Assembly: GCA_043823085.1 (NCBI GenBank)
Contig: JBDRBE010000004.1
Coordinates: 269,992-333,991, forward strand
Direction: 5' to 3'
Length of the DNA stretch: 64,000 nucleotides
Origin: Candidatus Levyibacteriota bacterium
GTDB taxonomy: Bacteria; Patescibacteriota; Microgenomatia; Levybacterales; UBA12049
Under the pieces are notes generated by a model, which saw only the letters and a list, made by a program, of their open reading frames with translations, was not told the origin of the DNA and did no database searches. A program made the translations under genes and the position numbers. Shown piece after piece: positions 3,391 to 10,595 of this stretch (positions within the stretch are counted from its first letter, which is position 1; the number at the start of each line of letters is the position of its first letter).

Positions 3391-3420
3391 TTGACAAACA
3401 ACTGATTCGAAGAATATAAT
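3391..3420 (+). promoter_or_regulatory. sigma70-like promoter TTGACA-18-TATAAT
   Basis: ttgacaaacaactgattcgaagaatataat. Confidence 0.5.
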
Positions 3421-3431
3421 TTCAATAGAGC

Positions 3432-3565
3432 ATGAAAAAATCTTTATTAACCCTTACCATTACTATGCTCCTTTAAGAGGAGTTGAAATGGTTTGGGAGA
3501 GTAAAGAAGTTTCAAAATAACCAAATCAGTAATGTTTAATCTCCCAAACTTGGGAGATTTTTTTA
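3432..3565 (+). promoter_or_regulatory. putative leader region: 14-codon ORF (MKKSLLTLTITMLL), 10-codon ORF (MVWESKEVSK), intrinsic terminator, and a mutually exclusive antiterminator pairing
   Basis: Terminator ctccc-aaactt-gggag followed by 7 T (3541..3564). gtttgggag (3491..3499) is the exact complement of ctcccaaac (3541..3549). Confidence 0.4.
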
Positions 3566-3575
3566 TGGAGGAGAT

Positions 3576-3815
3576 ATGGAATTTGAAGTTTGTCCTGTAT
3601 GTAAACCTTTAACTTGTGAACGTTCATGCGCGGTTAGAGACGGAATAAATGGGTCTTCCAGAGCATGCAATGATAAGTGTACATTAGAAATAGAGTTTCG
3701 TGGTGGCGTCGAAACTATCGTTTGGACATGTAAAAAAGCCGCGTGCCATGCAAGAAAAGAAGCAATAAAAGCCCATAAAGAACATATTGTTTTCTCACGC
3801 ACGGCCACCGCCTAA
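3576..3815 (+). CDS. small Cys-rich protein (8 Cys, CxxC...CxxxC...CxxxC pattern), possible zinc ribbon
   Basis: 79-aa ORF starting 4 nt after GGAGGAG. The overlapping antisense ORF 3563..3808 is the alternative reading. Confidence 0.4.
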   Translation: MEFEVCPVCKPLTCERSCAVRDGINGSSRACNDKCTLEIEFRGGVETIVWTCKKAACHARKEAIKAHKEHIVFSRTATA

Positions 3816-4806: not shown

Positions 4807-4869
4807 TAAAATAACATTTAAATTTTAACAGATAAGAGTAAATCGAGCAAGATTAAGAATTTAAACTTT

Positions 4870-4921
4870 ATGAAAAAGATAATTTTAGCCTCTGCCTCTC
4901 CCCGAAGAAAAGAATTGTTAA
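4870..4921 (+). repeat. 52-bp direct repeat, copy 1 (duplicate of the maf 5' end; copy 2 at 5881..5932; 3 mismatches)
   Basis: atgaaaaagataattttagcctctgcctctccccgaagaaaagaattgttaaa versus atgaaaaagataattttagcctctgcctctcctcgaagagaagaattgttaaa. Confidence 0.85.
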
Positions 4922-5748
4922 ACTCTCTGTGGTGTTGGTGGAGGAAATACACTTTCTCCGCGGGGTGAGTTTGCAACCTTTATAACCGCATTTTTATCCA
5001 GCCGAAGTGTAAGAGCATAAGAAACCTTAGGAATGCCATCCTGAGGTCTTGGCTTATATTCAACTATCGTGGCAGATACTCCTGAAAGATTAGTTGCAAG
5101 ATCACCTACCCAACCATTCTGTTCGCTACTTTCACTAACATGATGCCATTTTTGATTCCTTCTGGCAAGGTTGATTAACAAAGGTAATGTAGCTCTATCC
5201 GTAAGCAAACCAATTCTTTTAAGCACTGGTTCTAATACCGAAGGATCTGTATGATCAAGTAAATAAAGATAATCACGAGATTGAAATGAGCCTGGGGTCT
5301 TTAGTTCATCTTGAAAAACGTCTTCTACGCCTGCAGGTTTTCCTTCCAATTCTCTTTCCACCTGAATTTTTTCAACCATCTCATGTATGTCATCTGCCAT
5401 CTTACGCAAGTTTTGACTTTTTCCACATAACATCCTTCTACGCTCATCACCTTCAGGAAATCCTTCAGCAACTTCATATAAAATATTATCTAACACTTCT
5501 ACTGGACTTTCTGCCAATTTTTCTTCTACTTCTCGTCTTGCCCTTTCTCCTGCCATCCTAGCAACATCAGCAATTACCCTACGTTGTTCTCGAGGAATAT
5601 CTAGTCCTATTGTTGGGACTATAATCTGTGCTTTTGTTCGCAACTCTGCTCTACGGGCTGAATCGCCCTTGGTATGTCGATTTATACGAGATTCCACTTG
5701 TTGGAGAGATGGTCTTGATCCTACTTCAGATCTTGGCTCACCATTCAT
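4918..5748 (-). CDS. hypothetical protein (276 aa) on a GC-enriched insertion; distant paralog of 21776..22441
   Basis: Long ORF with visibly higher GC than flanks. Shares N-terminal M-N-E-P..GSR and C-terminal YAL...RGE..PPP segments with the 221-aa protein at 21776..22441. Confidence 0.6.
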   Translation of the reverse strand: MNGEPRSEVGSRPSLQQVESRINRHTKGDSARRAELRTKAQIIVPTIGLDIPREQRRVIADVARMAGERARREVEEKLAESPVEVLDNILYEVAEGFPEGDERRRMLCGKSQNLRKMADDIHEMVEKIQVERELEGKPAGVEDVFQDELKTPGSFQSRDYLYLLDHTDPSVLEPVLKRIGLLTDRATLPLLINLARRNQKWHHVSESSEQNGWVGDLATNLSGVSATIVEYKPRPQDGIPKVSYALTLRLDKNAVIKVANSPRGESVFPPPTPQRV

Positions 5749-5880: not shown

Positions 5881-6462
5881 ATGAAAAAGATAATTTTAGC
5901 CTCTGCCTCTCCTCGAAGAGAAGAATTGTTAAAAAATATCGGATTGAAATTCAGCGTTGAGCCAAGCAACTTAGATGAGAACATGACGCTAAATCTAAAA
6001 CCAGCTAAACTTGCTGAATTTTTATCATTCCAAAAAGCTAAAACCGTGGCCAAAAAATATAAAAATTCGATTATTATTGCCGCCGACACAATCGTTGTAA
6101 TCGGAAATGATATTTTAGGAAAAGCGCATACTGACAAAGAGGCAAAACAGATGTTAAATAAACTGAATGGAAAATCTCACTTGGTAATTACCGGATTTAC
6201 AATTATCGATAGCAATACAAATAAAAAAGTAACCAAATCCGAAAAAACAAAAGTATTCTTTAAAAAACTCAATGCACATGAAATAGATAATTATATAGCA
6301 ACAGGCGAACCGGTAAAAAAAGGAGGGGCGGGATCGTATTGCATTCAGGGTTTTGCCTCGATGTTTATAAAAAAAATTAAAGGAGACTATTTTAATGTTG
6401 TCGGCCTGCCGATATATTCGCTTATGGAATCTCTAAAAAAATTTGGCATCAAAGTTTTGTAA
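5881..6462 (+). CDS. maf: Maf-like nucleotide pyrophosphatase (septum formation protein Maf)
   Basis: N-terminal IILASASPRR with downstream conserved Maf/Ham1 motifs; 193 aa. Confidence 0.8.
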   Translation: MKKIILASASPRREELLKNIGLKFSVEPSNLDENMTLNLKPAKLAEFLSFQKAKTVAKKYKNSIIIAADTIVVIGNDILGKAHTDKEAKQMLNKLNGKSHLVITGFTIIDSNTNKKVTKSEKTKVFFKKLNAHEIDNYIATGEPVKKGGAGSYCIQGFASMFIKKIKGDYFNVVGLPIYSLMESLKKFGIKVL

Positions 6463-6469
6463 AATCAGC

Positions 6470-6498
6470 TTGACATGATGGTTGCAAAGTGATAAAGT
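6470..6498 (+). promoter_or_regulatory. promoter TTGACA-17-TAAAGT upstream of the thrS leader
   Basis: cttgacatgatggttgcaaagtgataaagt. Confidence 0.4.
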
Positions 6499-6511
6499 TA
6501 AAATTATCAAT

Positions 6512-6559
6512 ATGAAAAAATTTGATTTAAAAAAAACTACTACTACCTTTTCCTTCTAG
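6512..6559 (+). promoter_or_regulatory. 15-codon leader ORF MKKFDLKKTTTTFSF with four consecutive Thr codons
   Basis: atg aaa aaa ttt gat tta aaa aaa act act act acc ttt tcc ttc tag, read directly. Confidence 0.5.
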
Positions 6560-6585
6560 TGGGGGGTGGTAAGTTTGTGAAATAA

Positions 6586-6610
6586 AACCTCCCAATAGGA
6601 GGTTTTTTTG
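6586..6610 (+). terminator. intrinsic terminator cctcc(c)-aata-ggagg followed by T7, within the thrS leader
   Basis: aacctcccaataggaggttttttt. The upstream G-run tggggggtgg can pair with cctccc instead, forming an antiterminator. Confidence 0.55.
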
Positions 6611-6732
6611 TGTACATTTGAAAATTTATGAATAGCACACAATCCGTCTAAAAGCGCTCTTCGAGACAAGTCTGACTTGCTCGAGAAGTAAGCTTAGATG
6701 GATGTGTTAAATTCTGATATAATATAAAAATT

Positions 6733-8463
6733 ATGAGAAGTAAACAAATAGACAATCGTCTACAAATAATGAGACACTCATGCGCTCATCTTTTGGCTGC
6801 AGCAGTTTTGAAACTGTATCCAGACGTAAAACTTGGAATGGGACCTGCAATTGACAATGGGTTTTATTATGATTTTGAGTTTAAAAATGTAATTTCAAAA
6901 GATGATCTTCTAAAAATCGAGGAAGAAATGTTAAAGATTAAAAAAAAATGGAAGAAATTTGAACACTTTACAAAATCAGTTAACGAAGCCAGGGAAATTG
7001 AAAAAAACCAGCCATACAAATTAGAATTAGTCAGAGAACTTGCAAAACAAAATAAAAATTTTTCTTTTTACAAATCCGGTGATTTTGTTGATCTTTGCCT
7101 TGGACCGCACGTAAAAAATGCTAAAGAAATCGGCGCTTTCAAACTTACTTCAATTGCCGGCGCCTACTGGAAAGGCAATGAAAAAAACCCAATGCTGACA
7201 AGAATATACGGCATATGTTTTAAAACTCAAGAAGAATTAAATAAATATCTTTCCCAAAAATTACTGGCCAGTAAAAACGACCATAAAAGAATAGGCAGCG
7301 AGCTTGATCTTTTTAGCTTTCATCCGGAAGCTCCCGGATTTGTTTTCTGGCATGCGAATGGACAAAGGATGCGAAAACCGCTGGTAAATTTCTGGCAGAA
7401 AATGCACGATAAAGCAGGGTATGAAGAGGTTTCGACCCCCATTCTTCTTTCCGAAGAGCTTTGGAAAAAATCAGGCCACTGGCAGAATTATAAAGATAAG
7501 ATGTACTTTACTAAAAAGGAGAACAAAACACTTGCCCTAAAACCGATGAATTGCCCCGGAATGATGTTAATTTATAAGAATAATCCGCATTCTTACAAAG
7601 AGTTACCTATCAGATGGAGAGAGCTTGGGCTAGTTCATCGTCATGAACCATCCGGAGTTTTAAACGGATTGCTTCGCGAAAGAGCTTTTCGCCAGGATGA
7701 CGCTCATATTTTCTGTCAGGAAAATCAAGTTGAAGAAGAAGTTAAAAAGATTGTAAAATTGGAGCTTGAAATTTATTCTGCTTTCCACTTTGAAAAAATT
7801 CGTATTGAATTATCCACTCGGCCAAAAAAATCTATAGGTACAAGCAAAATGTGGAATACGGCTGAAAAAATTCTAAAAAAAGTCTTAAAAGATTTAAAAT
7901 TAGATTATGATATAAGCGAAGGCGAAGGAGCGTTTTACGGTCCTAAAGTTGATTTTCACTTAACTGATTCTCTGGATCGACCCTGGCAGTGCGGAACGAT
8001 TCAGGTGGATTTTGCTATGCCAAGTCAATTTGATTTAATATATATTGATAAAGATGGAAGTAAAAAATGTCCGGTTATGATCCATCGGGCTGTTTTTGGT
8101 TCATTTCATAGATTTTTCGGCATACTTATTGAACACTACGGAGGAGTGTTCCCTTTATGGCTTGCTCCGGTGCAGGTAAAAATTATTCCGATTACAGATG
8201 GGCAAAAAGACTTTGGAGAAATTATTTTGGAGCTTTTCCGAGGAGAAGGTATTAATGTTGACTTTGACGATAGATCAGAAACAATGCAAGCCAAAATCAG
8301 AGATGCCACTTTACAAAAAGTACCTTATATGGCTATAATAGGGGATAAGGAAATTGCAACGAACAGTGTTTCGGTCCGAACCAGAGATGGAAAAAATCTC
8401 GGAGCGATGAGAGTTTCGGAATTTTTACAAAAGTTAAAAGAAGAAATTGATAAAAAGATTTAG
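6733..8463 (+). CDS. thrS: threonyl-tRNA synthetase (short form, N-terminal TGS domain absent)
   Basis: HSCAHLL zinc motif, DHKRIGSELDLF, class II core motifs, C-terminal anticodon-binding domain. Confidence 0.9.
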   Translation: MRSKQIDNRLQIMRHSCAHLLAAAVLKLYPDVKLGMGPAIDNGFYYDFEFKNVISKDDLLKIEEEMLKIKKKWKKFEHFTKSVNEAREIEKNQPYKLELVRELAKQNKNFSFYKSGDFVDLCLGPHVKNAKEIGAFKLTSIAGAYWKGNEKNPMLTRIYGICFKTQEELNKYLSQKLLASKNDHKRIGSELDLFSFHPEAPGFVFWHANGQRMRKPLVNFWQKMHDKAGYEEVSTPILLSEELWKKSGHWQNYKDKMYFTKKENKTLALKPMNCPGMMLIYKNNPHSYKELPIRWRELGLVHRHEPSGVLNGLLRERAFRQDDAHIFCQENQVEEEVKKIVKLELEIYSAFHFEKIRIELSTRPKKSIGTSKMWNTAEKILKKVLKDLKLDYDISEGEGAFYGPKVDFHLTDSLDRPWQCGTIQVDFAMPSQFDLIYIDKDGSKKCPVMIHRAVFGSFHRFFGILIEHYGGVFPLWLAPVQVKIIPITDGQKDFGEIILELFRGEGINVDFDDRSETMQAKIRDATLQKVPYMAIIGDKEIATNSVSVRTRDGKNLGAMRVSEFLQKLKEEIDKKI

Positions 8464-9088
8464 AAAAAATCAAGTAAGAGTTTTTTATCGGACAAACGAG
8501 CGAATATATGCTGTAACGCTTCGTGTTTTAGATAGCGAAGGTAAGCAAATTGGGGTTCTTAGCAAATTTGACGCTTTAAAAAAAGCAAGAGATTTAAATT
8601 TAGATCTAGTCGAAGTAGCTCCGATGGCAAAACCTCCTGTTGCCAAAATAATTGATTTTAAAAAATTTTTGTATCAACAGGCAAAGAAAAAAAAGGAAGA
8701 AAAGAAAAAAAACAAAGTTTCCGAAACAAAAGAGATTAGACTCGGGCCTTTTATGAACGACCATGACCTTCAAGTCATGATTCGAAGAGGAAAAGAGTTT
8801 TTGGAAGACGGCGATAAAGTAAGATTGGTTGTCAAATTTTTTGGACGCCAAATAGCGCATCCTGAATTTGGCAAAAACGTTTTAGATAAAGTTGTAACGT
8901 CCCTATCGGAAATTTCGAAACTGGAGAGAGATCCTCATTTTGAGGGGAAACAATTGATTGCGATTCTTTCTCCTGCCCGCCATGGCTCTGCCAAAGGCGT
9001 TGCAGGCGGGCCGCAAAAAGCAAAAAAGTTCGCCAAAGAAGGCGAGGGAGATATTAAAAATGAGAAAAATAAAGAAATCAGTCAGTAA
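8447..9088 (+). CDS. infC: translation initiation factor IF-3; probable non-AUG start (TTG/ATA) overlapping the thrS end
   Basis: RVLDSEGKQIGVL...LDLVEVAPMAKPPVAKIIDFKKF matches the IF3 N-domain and linker. Confidence 0.85.
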   Translation: MIKRFRKNQVRVFYRTNERIYAVTLRVLDSEGKQIGVLSKFDALKKARDLNLDLVEVAPMAKPPVAKIIDFKKFLYQQAKKKKEEKKKNKVSETKEIRLGPFMNDHDLQVMIRRGKEFLEDGDKVRLVVKFFGRQIAHPEFGKNVLDKVVTSLSEISKLERDPHFEGKQLIAILSPARHGSAKGVAGGPQKAKKFAKEGEGDIKNEKNKEISQ

Positions 9089-9251
9089 AAGATTTAAAGT
9101 TACCAAAAACGGTAAAGTTCTTTTTTCACATCAATATAAAGGACATAAAATGGTTAGTAAGTCTTCAAGGAGAAAAAGGAGGCAAAAAGAACCGGGAATC
9201 TTGAAGGGCAAATTCGCGAAAAAGATAAAAAAGATGTTGGGCAAAAGTTAA
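9060..9251 (+). CDS. rpmI: 50S ribosomal protein L35
   Basis: MRKIKKSVSKRFKVTKNGKVLF... is L35-like. ATG is in frame inside the larger ORF 8958..9251. Confidence 0.8.
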   Translation: MRKIKKSVSKRFKVTKNGKVLFSHQYKGHKMVSKSSRRKRRQKEPGILKGKFAKKIKKMLGKS

Positions 9252-9443
9252 ATTTGTCTCGCAAAGCGAGATCCTGCTATGCGGGACAAAAAAGTAAAAC
9301 AAATGTTAGGAAAAGCCTGATGGGAAAAAGAGCAAGAAAAAATATAAATTTTAGGGAGACTCATTCCGAGAGATCGGCAACAAACTCGTACCGAAATTTT
9401 GGAAAGTCTTTAAAAGAAAAGTTTAACATAAAATTCGGAAAAT

Positions 9444-9568
9444 CTTGAAGTTAGAAGTGAGATTTTTTTGAGCTTGAATATTTGATTTCTTGAATTCTAG
9501 ATATCAAGATTTCAATTCGTCAGCTGACGAATCAAGATCAAAGACATCAAGGATATCCAACTTCAAGA
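9444..9568 (+). promoter_or_regulatory. structured nested inverted-repeat region between rpmI and rplT (possible L20 autoregulatory leader or palindromic element)
   Basis: Outer arms cttgaagtt / aacttcaag. Inner near-perfect 18-nt palindrome attcgtcagctgacgaat. Triple atcaagat motif. Confidence 0.4.
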
Positions 9569-9581
9569 ATTCTAAACAATT

Positions 9582-9926: not shown

Positions 9927-9985
9927 ATCTGATATAATTATTTTTAATATGAAACAATCTAGCAATGTAATCATCTTTGGTTTCT

Positions 9986-10012
9986 TTTTTACTTCCCAGA
10001 CCGGGAGGTTTT
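9986..10012 (+). terminator. intrinsic terminator cttccc-agacc-gggagg + T5
   Basis: Read directly after rplT. Confidence 0.5.
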
Positions 10013-10042
10013 TAATGTCTTAAAAAAATAAAAGACAAAAAG

Positions 10043-10068
10043 AACAACCTCCCGAGAAGGGAGGTTTT
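10043..10068 (+). terminator. intrinsic terminator cctccc-gagaa-gggagg + T6
   Basis: aacctcccgagaagggaggtttttt. Same style as the terminator at 6586. Confidence 0.6.
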
Positions 10069-10092
10069 TTAATGGCAAAGGAGGTGAATTAT

Positions 10093-10278
10093 ATGAGTAA
10101 ATCAGAGTGTTTACAATTAAAAACTGGTAGCTGTATGGGATGTAGTGTCTTAGAGATAGTTTTACGAAAAGGAAGAGAAGGACAAGTTGACGATATTGCT
10201 AAAAGAGTTGGCAAAAGTCTTTGCCCTGAGGGAATGCGACCAAGGGCTATATCGAAACCGAAACGTAAAATGTGGTAG
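10093..10278 (+). CDS. small hypothetical protein (about 61 aa; CMGC motif); start 7 nt after AAGGAGGTG
   Basis: Strong Shine-Dalgarno sequence with good spacing. The ORF track begins at the in-frame upstream ATG 10072. Confidence 0.45.
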   Translation: MSKSECLQLKTGSCMGCSVLEIVLRKGREGQVDDIAKRVGKSLCPEGMRPRAISKPKRKMW

Positions 10279-10316: not shown

Positions 10317-10595
10317 ATGGCAATTGCTGAAAGAAGTGCAGAAATTGGAATAACCGAAGCACTGGAAAAACTTGACGAAGTATCACGTGTAGCAAGAATA
10401 GAAAGAGAGCATGGAACACTCTCGGGAAAAAACATAATACCCGACTTAACAAGAAAAGCTAGAGAAAAAAGAATCACAACTATAATTAATGGAAAACATC
10501 CAGATTTAGATAGTGTTCCAAACATATATCGAGATAGTGTTTTCTCTGGAAAAACTTTAATAGTAGATGGGTATGGTGTCCACGTAGTTTCGTAG
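10317..10595 (+). CDS. small hypothetical protein (92 aa); RBS AAGGAGGTG
   Basis: Strong Shine-Dalgarno sequence. No recognisable domain. Confidence 0.45.
   Translation: MAIAERSAEIGITEALEKLDEVSRVARIEREHGTLSGKNIIPDLTRKAREKRITTIINGKHPDLDSVPNIYRDSVFSGKTLIVDGYGVHVVS

Follow-up and report, generated by a model that had tools for sequence, protein, structure and literature searches.

How does a bacterium with a very small genome adjust the expression of a tRNA synthetase gene to the supply of charged tRNA? The question is raised by the intergenic segment in front of thrS, the gene for threonyl-tRNA synthetase (ThrRS), in a 64,000-nt stretch of Candidatus Levyibacteriota DNA (contig JBDRBE010000004.1; the whole stretch is referred to as the window, with positions counted from its first nucleotide). 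To our knowledge, members of the candidate phyla radiation (CPR, Patescibacteria) have very small genomes with few recognisable regulators, and their control of gene expression is almost unstudied. A preliminary description of this segment, made from the sequence alone, had listed a promoter TTGACA-17-TAAAGT, a 15-codon open reading frame (ORF) with the codons act act act acc, a G-run able to pair with the 5’ arm of a terminator, the terminator itself with seven T residues and thrS about 120 nt downstream, and had read the arrangement as ribosome-mediated attenuation. All of these parts are present, although some coordinates had to be corrected slightly; the terminator loop reads CAATA. The alternative folds, the conservation of the element and the lack of fit to any T-box model support the proposed architecture, and we consider the element very likely to be a classical ribosome-mediated leader-peptide attenuator that senses threonine and acts on thrS. 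Its parts are as follows.

6470-6498, plus strand: promoter P1, with the -35 element TTGACA (6470-6475), a 17-nt spacer, TG at 6490-6491 and the -10 element TAAAGT (6493-6498)
6512-6559, plus strand: leader ORF MKKFDLKKTTTTFSF of 15 codons, with ATG at 6512 and TAG at 6557-6559, without a Shine-Dalgarno (SD) sequence
6534-6554, plus strand: region 1, the Thr codons and the CU-rich codons after them, which supply the 5’ strand of the 1:2 hairpin (anti-antiterminator or pause)
6560-6576, plus strand: region 2, UGGGGGGUGGUAAGUUU, whose partners are region 1 or, via 6560-6567, region 3
6584-6609, plus strand: intrinsic terminator, regions 3 and 4, AAAACCUCC / CAAUA / GGAGGUUUU followed by U7
6733-8463, plus strand: thrS, threonyl-tRNA synthetase of 576 amino acids with tRNA_SAD, class II core and HGTP anticodon-binding domains and no TGS domain

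P1 is a TG-extended promoter of the sigma-70 type with 10 of 12 matches in the promoter scan. The leader ORF starts 13 nt downstream of it, leaving a predicted 5’ untranslated region (5’ UTR) of only about 6 nt, and its regulatory codons ACT ACT ACT ACC occupy 6536-6547. Immediately 3’ of the leader stop codon follows the G-run TGGGGGGTGG (6560-6569), and then the terminator, AAAACCTCC-CAATA-GGAGGTTTT in the DNA (6584-6606), with a 9-bp stem and the T-run at 6603-6609; from there it is 123 nt to the thrS ATG at 6733. The leader is the sole intergenic small ORF within the window that combines a Thr run with a following T-run. The encoded ThrRS is 100% identical to the NCBI entry ‘MAG: threonine--tRNA ligase [Candidatus Levyibacteriota bacterium]’, which places the organism in the CPR/Patescibacteria. 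Every feature by which the classical attenuator class is defined at the level of sequence is present at the locus.

Folding of the leader RNA, which had been proposed as a check for mutually exclusive structures, yielded three such pairings (1:2, 2:3 and 3:4) of similar stability. In the 1:2 hairpin 6534-6554 pairs with 6561-6576, joining the Thr codons to GGUGGUA (-14.3 kcal/mol), while in the 2:3 antiterminator UGGGGGGU at 6560-6567 pairs with ACCUCCCA at 6587-6594 (-15.4 kcal/mol), a 3’ strand that lies inside the terminator element. The folding was repeated with the stretch under a ribosome kept single-stranded. When a Thr codon occupies the A site and the mask extends as far as 6552 or 6558, folding at minimum energy yields the antiterminator, also when the full RNA is included, and it remains favoured with masks reaching up to 13 nt beyond a Thr A site. 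With the ribosome at the stop codon and the mask extending to 6570 the terminator alone forms, and with no ribosome the 1:2 hairpin and the terminator coexist. The geometry of the leader corresponds to this, since the stop codon (6557-6559) adjoins the G-run (6560-6569) and the Thr codons end 13 nt before the stop-adjacent G-run. Such switching between folds in the masked models is the behaviour expected of a trp-type attenuator.

In the mechanism that we propose, the supply of charged tRNA-Thr would be sensed and readthrough from P1 into thrS-infC-rpmI-rplT would be controlled. P1 would initiate a few nucleotides 5’ of the leader AUG, and the 15-codon ORF would be translated in a leaderless or near-leaderless fashion. 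With ample Thr-tRNA the ribosome would reach the UAG and cover the G-run of region 2, so that regions 3 and 4 fold and transcription stops at U7; after release of the ribosome, region 2 would pair with the Thr codons in the 1:2 hairpin. When Thr-tRNA is scarce, the ribosome would stall on ACU ACU ACU ACC and mask region 1, the free G-run would pair with the 5’ arm of the terminator once this is made, and RNA polymerase would proceed past the blocked terminator into thrS. A second extended -10 promoter just before the thrS ATG, designated P2 below, probably gives basal expression. The elements in the sequence, the alternative pairings and how far they are conserved, and the restriction of the runs to Thr are what the analysis shows; translation of the ORF, its coupling to transcription, the response to Thr limitation and the activity of P2 are what we infer from this arrangement.

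Conservation of the Thr-rich peptide was examined in two sets of loci, each designated L with a number. Near relatives (58-66% ThrRS identity) were gathered by a large protein search and contig look-ups, and 12 contigs were read; distant relatives, all at ≤55% identity, came from ThrRS scans that covered JGI metagenomes and one genome for each GTDB species. In this comparison, which the preliminary description had proposed as a check, thrS is preceded by a cassette of Thr run and terminator in 9 of the 12 relatives nearest by ThrRS, and also in further CPR clades. The leader peptides, each given up to the stop codon, are the following.

L161, near relative: MKQSAIASTTTTKLS
L163, near relative: MQIAGQVTTTTTFPS
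L164, near relative: MKPQMENTTTTTTSS
L166, near relative: MKPQIAKAVTTTTIPS
L168 (Woykebacteria), near relative: (GTG)RKTKALDCTTTASSS, with a GTG start
L169, near relative: MKLTRLTTTTTTAEFS
L171, near relative: ..AETTTDLS
L172/L173, near relative: ..TSTTTTDSS
L165, near relative: leader incomplete because the contig ends there; region 2 and terminator are seen
L077/L080/L140, distant CPR-type: MITFFSITTTTFS, MITLFSTTTTTFS
L124, distant CPR-type: MRKNTTTTTTTRA
L050 (Nealsonbacteria), distant CPR-type: ..NRITTTTTTS
L132, distant CPR-type: ..ITATTTTSL
L148, distant CPR-type: ..ITNTTTSF
L115, distant CPR-type: ..LQTTTSP

Leaders of this kind carry 3-7 consecutive Thr codons, and at several of the distant CPR-type loci the Thr-run ORF ends about 100 nt 5’ of thrS. 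In all cassette-bearing near relatives the stop codon is located 0-6 nt from region 2, (A/G)GGRGGUUGU, a sequence complementary to the Thr codons (ACAACNACC) as well as to the 5’ arm of the terminator (ACAACCUCC); the terminator itself follows the design AACCUCC-loop-GGAGGUU plus U-run. The three pairings recur in all 10 aligned members, where their duplexes have energies of about -9 to -21 kcal/mol. The genes upstream of the cassette vary among the loci (maf, thrC, DUF5665, NAGPA, tRNA-Val), which ties the element to thrS and not to the neighbouring gene. At one of these loci (L161, 59-1360) thrC, encoding threonine synthase, is found directly 5’ of the Thr leader and thrS, so that Thr synthesis adjoins Thr charging.

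A covariance model built from the 10 members, designated R1, retrieved L171, L172 and L173, which were not part of the model, at E = 1e-10 to 1e-13. Pairs were counted in a 12-member alignment, with partners slid by 1-3 columns as control. The off-state structure is 94% paired, compared with 50-67% in the slid controls, and shows compensatory changes in 6 pairs, and its covariation score was not reached by any shuffle; in the terminator, three pairs change in a compensatory way across the relatives. Helices 1-2 are 92-98% paired and the antiterminator is 87% paired, compared with 58-78% in slid controls.

To what extent could Thr runs arise at such positions by chance? In about 156 loci, the 300 nt 5’ of thrS were scanned for ATG-started ORFs, 6-45 codons long, in which one residue stands at least 4 times in succession. 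Thr runs of this length occur in 7 loci, while composition-preserving shuffles gave 0.04 expected and a maximum of 1. Runs of any other amino acid occur in at most 1 locus each, and the reverse strand yielded 0. The 7 loci represent about 5 lineages, as L077, L080 and L140 form one clade; the near relatives were gathered later and are additional to this count. Looser counts (runs of at least 3, or 4 in 6 residues combined with a crude terminator rule) failed to discriminate, since AT-rich DNA often encodes runs of Leu and Ser.

P1 has counterparts in the relatives: a P1-like sequence TTGAC(A/G)-17/18-TGnTA(A/T)A(G/A)T ends 6-13 nt 5’ of the leader start in L161, L163, L164, L166, L168, L169, L171 and L172, and with a promoter at this distance from the start codon the transcript is therefore expected to begin 0-6 nt 5’ of the AUG. 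Most genes of the window have a promoter of the TTGACA-17-TATAAT type with the -10 element ending 5-9 nt 5’ of the ATG and no SD sequence; examples of starts with such a short-spaced -10 are 40566, 45632 and 58050 on the plus strand and 13632, 21776, 22673 and 61569 on the minus strand. A minority, mainly small ORFs, have strong AAGGAGGTG sites. Given the many window genes with this spacing and without SD, leaderless or near-leaderless initiation is the apparent norm here, which implies that leaderless mRNAs would be widespread in the Levybacteria genome, and translation of the SD-less leader ORF is plausible in this light. Leaderless leader peptides have been described for Streptomyces attenuators (PMC8079986).

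The surroundings of the cassette comprise the following further features, of which the extended -10 element and the hairpin before thrS had been omitted from the preliminary description.

5881-6462: maf, the gene upstream of P1
6633-6709, plus strand: long near-perfect hairpin of 77 nt in the readthrough 5’ UTR, between terminator and thrS
6715-6723, plus strand: candidate promoter P2, a perfect extended -10 element TGATATAAT located 9 nt before the thrS ATG, in the leaderless layout typical of this genome
8447-9088, plus strand: infC, overlapping thrS and part of the same unit
9060-9251, plus strand: rpmI, identified by eye from similarity to the L35 gene of L161
9582-9926, plus strand: rplT, part of the same unit as thrS

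Elements of the form TGnTATAGT/TGnTATTAT are likewise found 4-9 nt 5’ of the thrS ATG in L163, L165 and L166, and about 26 and 40 nt from it in L164. P2 would act as a basal promoter, to which the attenuator would add inducible transcription from P1 together with any readthrough from maf; taken with the 77-nt hairpin, this suggests that the attenuator modulates one of two transcription inputs. The region 6614-6745, which contains the hairpin, folds at -36.5 kcal/mol (z-score -4.9). A repeat or mobile element was considered for the hairpin and rejected, as no further copy was found in the window or in 170 loci; it gave no Rfam match and is not conserved in the relatives. In L161 the U-tract of the terminator runs directly into the thrS ATG, and because its GGGAGG 3’ arm is placed 13 nt 5’ of the start codon, region 4 may double as ribosome-binding site in some members. 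Downstream of thrS, an ORF at 9254-9448 was tried as rpmI and rejected for want of Pfam or BLAST support, the real rpmI being that at 9060-9251. Between rpmI and rplT there is a gap of 330 nt (9252-9581) without a supported gene, and gaps before rplT were also noted in L162, L166 and L170. The gap could hold an unrecognised L20-responsive leader; the Rfam search gave no match within it.

Several observations weigh against control of thrS by attenuation. The cassette is patchy, being absent from 3 of the 12 nearest relatives and from most distant CPR relatives. With few members and highly conserved helices the covariation is modest, and the shuffle controls for the antiterminator are not decisive. 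Translation of an SD-less ORF with a 5’ UTR of about 6 nt is assumed, and thrS itself, when reached by readthrough, has no SD sequence and is preceded by a very stable hairpin. Furthermore, a perfect extended -10 element (6715-6723) is located 3’ of the terminator, and thrS could be expressed mainly or wholly from this promoter of its own. Promoter, small ORF and terminator would then constitute an independent short unit, a small RNA or micropeptide gene, whose terminator always works and which exerts no control in cis on a thrS transcribed only from P2. Such a reading agrees with the position of P2 9 nt before the thrS ATG, in a leaderless layout like that of many window genes, and with the comparable elements before thrS in L163, L165, L166 and L164; released attenuator RNAs are moreover described to act in trans elsewhere, rnTrpL being an example (PMC6614838). 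It leaves unexplained, however, that the unit is always found directly 5’ of thrS whatever the upstream gene, and that the conserved features are those which an attenuator needs, namely Thr codons, a stop codon adjoining region 2 and the complementarity of region 2 to region 1 as well as region 3. In L161, where the U-tract meets the thrS ATG, there is no space for a separate promoter, and the codons of the sister elements described below match their own downstream genes. We regard an independent unit as unlikely.

Still less probable is a control of thrS mainly through RNA-protein or RNA-tRNA contacts, by a divergent T-box or by a ThrRS or L20 operator at the hairpin 6633-6709, with the leader ORF being incidental. 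ThrRS and L20 of E. coli autoregulate via structures in their 5’ UTRs, the hairpin is unusually stable (z-score -4.9) and placed between terminator and thrS, and L162 carries a T-box-like GGGTGGAACC motif in place of the leader. Yet no Rfam family matched within 6300-6900 at E ≤ 10 beyond the weak hits detailed below, a T-box core motif is missing, the apical loop CUG of the hairpin is unlike the anticodon loop of tRNA-Thr, and it is the leader cassette, not the hairpin, that is conserved among the relatives; the motif of L162 is itself without an Rfam T-box match. An additional RNA-protein or RNA-tRNA layer could coexist with attenuation. Finally, an ORF arisen by chance could account for the Thr run, and hairpin and T-run could simply be the terminator of maf, which ends at 6462 with no other terminator before 6584; AT-rich intergenic DNA does yield many small ORFs. 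A conserved TG-extended promoter is however located between maf and the ORF, Thr runs are more than 100-fold enriched specifically upstream of thrS, and the cassette is also found beside thrS at loci without maf, so that chance has only the slightest probability and is effectively refuted by the comparative data. Among these readings, the Thr-sensing attenuator agrees best with the conserved features.

The patchy distribution of the attenuator is accompanied by variation in design. Leaders were sought by three-frame translation in the relatives without a Thr leader, most of which truly have none, thrS often abutting the upstream gene; in two of the three cassette-less near relatives this is the DUF5665 gene. 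At L162 (63% ThrRS identity) a region of about 190 nt (300-483) contains a T-box-like GGGTGGAACCATCC (GGGTGGAACC) motif and a terminator but no Thr leader, and gave no Rfam T-box match at E ≤ 0.1. It may represent a T-box of divergent form or an element of another kind, and with the Rfam T-box match lacking we do not claim a replacement by a T-box within the clade. Two fairly close relatives that share the upstream gene, L115 (about 1800-1995) and L103 (about 1985-1995), differ in that thrS of L103 starts 3 nt after the stop codon of this gene, whereas about 190 nt with promoter, Thr leader and terminator lie between the two in L115, an indication that the attenuator was recently gained or lost. 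Thr leaders of a second design were noted at Parcubacteria-like loci (L050 2855-2975, L132 1512-1625, L148 1835-1950, L115 1847-1945). In this simpler design the 5’ arm of the terminator takes in the stop codon together with the last Thr codons, an internal hairpin is enclosed, and there is no separate antiterminator, so that a stalled ribosome would itself occlude the terminator. In L077 (2767-2951) and L140 (794-978) the leader ORF follows a few nucleotides (5 nt in L077) after tRNA-Val(GAC) with no promoter between them, and in this clade the tRNA gene is preceded by tRNA-Asp; leader and tRNAs would share one transcript, from which processing of the tRNA 3’ end would expose the leader.

Further sites of similar layout were found as cross-matches of R1. 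A candidate Phe leader attenuator is located after rplT at 9930-10070 of the window, the position of pheM in E. coli. The element TGATATAAT at 9930-9938 lies 10 nt 5’ of a Phe-rich ORF, MKQSSNVIIFGFFFTSQTGRFLMS (9949-10023), which is followed by ACUUCCC / GGGAGGU / ACCUCCC / GGGAGGU plus U6, able to form either 1:2 together with 3:4 (the terminator, 10046-10070) or 2:3. Downstream come two small ORFs with SD sequences and then pheS (10663) and pheT (11725). Small ORFs of this kind between the terminator of an attenuator and the synthetase gene (10093-10278 and 10317-10595 in the window, 475-663 in L166) encode 61, 92 and 62 amino acids, have strong SD sequences and gave no Pfam match. Phe-rich or aromatic-rich leaders after rplT were also seen at four other loci, in relatives: MKLFTFTGFFFRI with a terminator before a pheS-like gene (L119, about 4955-5054), MQKLTKTFGFFYLTP with a terminator before aroE, encoding shikimate dehydrogenase (L161, 4336-4433), MKQLSNTTIWVFFYFTS with a terminator before a DAHP-synthase-like gene (L123, about 4858-4967) and MKFFQSTNVFFFTSQ with a terminator (L157, about 4934-5038). 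A third attenuator-like unit of the window (3391-3564) consists of TTGACA-18-TATAAT 11 nt 5’ of the ORF 3432-3476, MKKSLLTLTITMLL, a very stable 1:2 fold (z-score -5.4) and a terminator AAUCUCCC-AAAC-UUGGGAGAUU plus U7; the gene after it is a Cys-rich ORF of 79 amino acids (3576-3815) with a strong SD sequence and no Pfam match.

Wherever the target is recognisable, the enriched codons agree with the downstream gene, a match that provides strong, if indirect, support for function. The thrS leader may be one case of a modular attenuator cassette with leaderless translation, which the CPR/Patescibacteria would have re-targeted repeatedly by swaps of the regulatory codons and which would be a principal amino-acid-sensing device of these reduced genomes; we put this forward tentatively and think it less likely than not. 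Its layout may be promoter, start codon within about 10 nt, regulatory codons, stop codon, GGGAGGUUGU, AACCUCCC and GGGAGG plus U-run, and its targets may pair Thr with thrS, Phe with pheST, aromatic codons with aroE and DAHP synthase, and a Leu/Thr/Ile-rich leader with the Cys-rich small protein. If true, the cassette would fill the role that the T-box has in Firmicutes and imply tight transcription-translation coupling in the CPR.

Should a conserved attenuator on thrS, with sisters on pheST and aromatic genes, prove correct, CPR bacteria would sense tRNA charging by ribosome stalling, which implies coupling of transcription and translation and suggests that leader ORFs with little or no 5’ UTR are efficiently translated. 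thrS would join the short list of synthetase genes under leader-peptide control, and the close relatives would offer a natural case in which an attenuator on the same gene is exchanged with other control or none. As a small, sequence-defined element, R1 could serve to annotate hundreds of CPR genomes.

How does the element relate to systems already known? The Rfam covariance models place it neither in Thr_leader (RF00506) nor in T-box (RF00230): within 6300-6900 no T-box, Thr_leader, L20-leader or other match was obtained at E ≤ 10 except weak Phe_leader hits on the terminator part, and in the whole window nothing but tRNAs reached the gathering score. The T-box alternative raised in the preliminary description thus finds no fit to a covariance model, and the T-box core GGGUGGNACCNCG, present in 37 mostly clostridial loci of the ThrRS search, is absent from the window. 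In the E. coli-type thrS operator ThrRS binds a mimic of the tRNA-Thr anticodon arm, with NGU in a 7-nt loop near the ribosome-binding site; the only strong hairpin here (6633-6709) has a CUG loop and ends 24 nt before the ATG. A full-text literature search found no report of leader-peptide attenuation in the CPR.

Leader-peptide attenuation is textbook knowledge for the trp, his, thr, leu, ilv and pheA operons, and among synthetase genes it is established for E. coli pheST. The likeness to pheM-pheST is one of design: a synthetase operon is preceded by a short ORF rich in cognate codons, alternative hairpins and an intrinsic terminator, the neighbourhood thrS-infC-rpmI-rplT-pheST is the same, and the Phe-rich leader of the window occupies the position of pheM. 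The differences are that Thr and thrS are concerned here, in a CPR lineage, and that the leader has no SD sequence and starts 6-13 nt from the -10 element. With thrL (RF00506) the element shares tandem Thr codons that sense the charging of Thr-tRNA and govern a terminator through exclusive helices, whereas thrL regulates thrABC, contains Ile codons and an SD sequence, and its model gave no match here at E ≤ 10. The thrS T-box of Firmicutes (RF00230) equally prevents a terminator upstream of thrS when charged tRNA-Thr is short, but its RNA senses uncharged tRNA directly, without translation, and neither model nor motif is found here. That T-boxes and leader peptides replace each other on a given gene in the course of evolution is documented (PMC2965389).

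The closest parallels come from Streptomyces, for which classical attenuators of trpS and leuS have been predicted (PMC1262725) and, in S. lividans, leaderless leader candidates before leuS, trpS, alaS and thrS (PMC8079986). These leaders likewise have no 5’ UTR, contain cognate codons and lie upstream of aminoacyl-tRNA synthetase genes, including thrS. The thrL-thrS case of S. lividans is a weak candidate; its ThrL contains just two Thr codons, and a clear terminator was not recognised by the authors (PMC8079986), whereas the leaders described here combine 3-7 consecutive Thr codons with a canonical terminator, are conserved across many genomes and belong to another phylum-level lineage. The judgement that an attenuator would be an unusual solution thus holds insofar as it is uncommon for thrS, but not in the sense of a new kind of control, for which E. 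coli pheST and the predicted cases of trpS and leuS in Streptomyces and thrL-thrS in S. lividans are precedents. What distinguishes the present element is that it very probably represents a thrS-specific family of leaderless-type attenuators in the CPR, one that Rfam does not contain and whose mechanism is known but uncommon for this gene.

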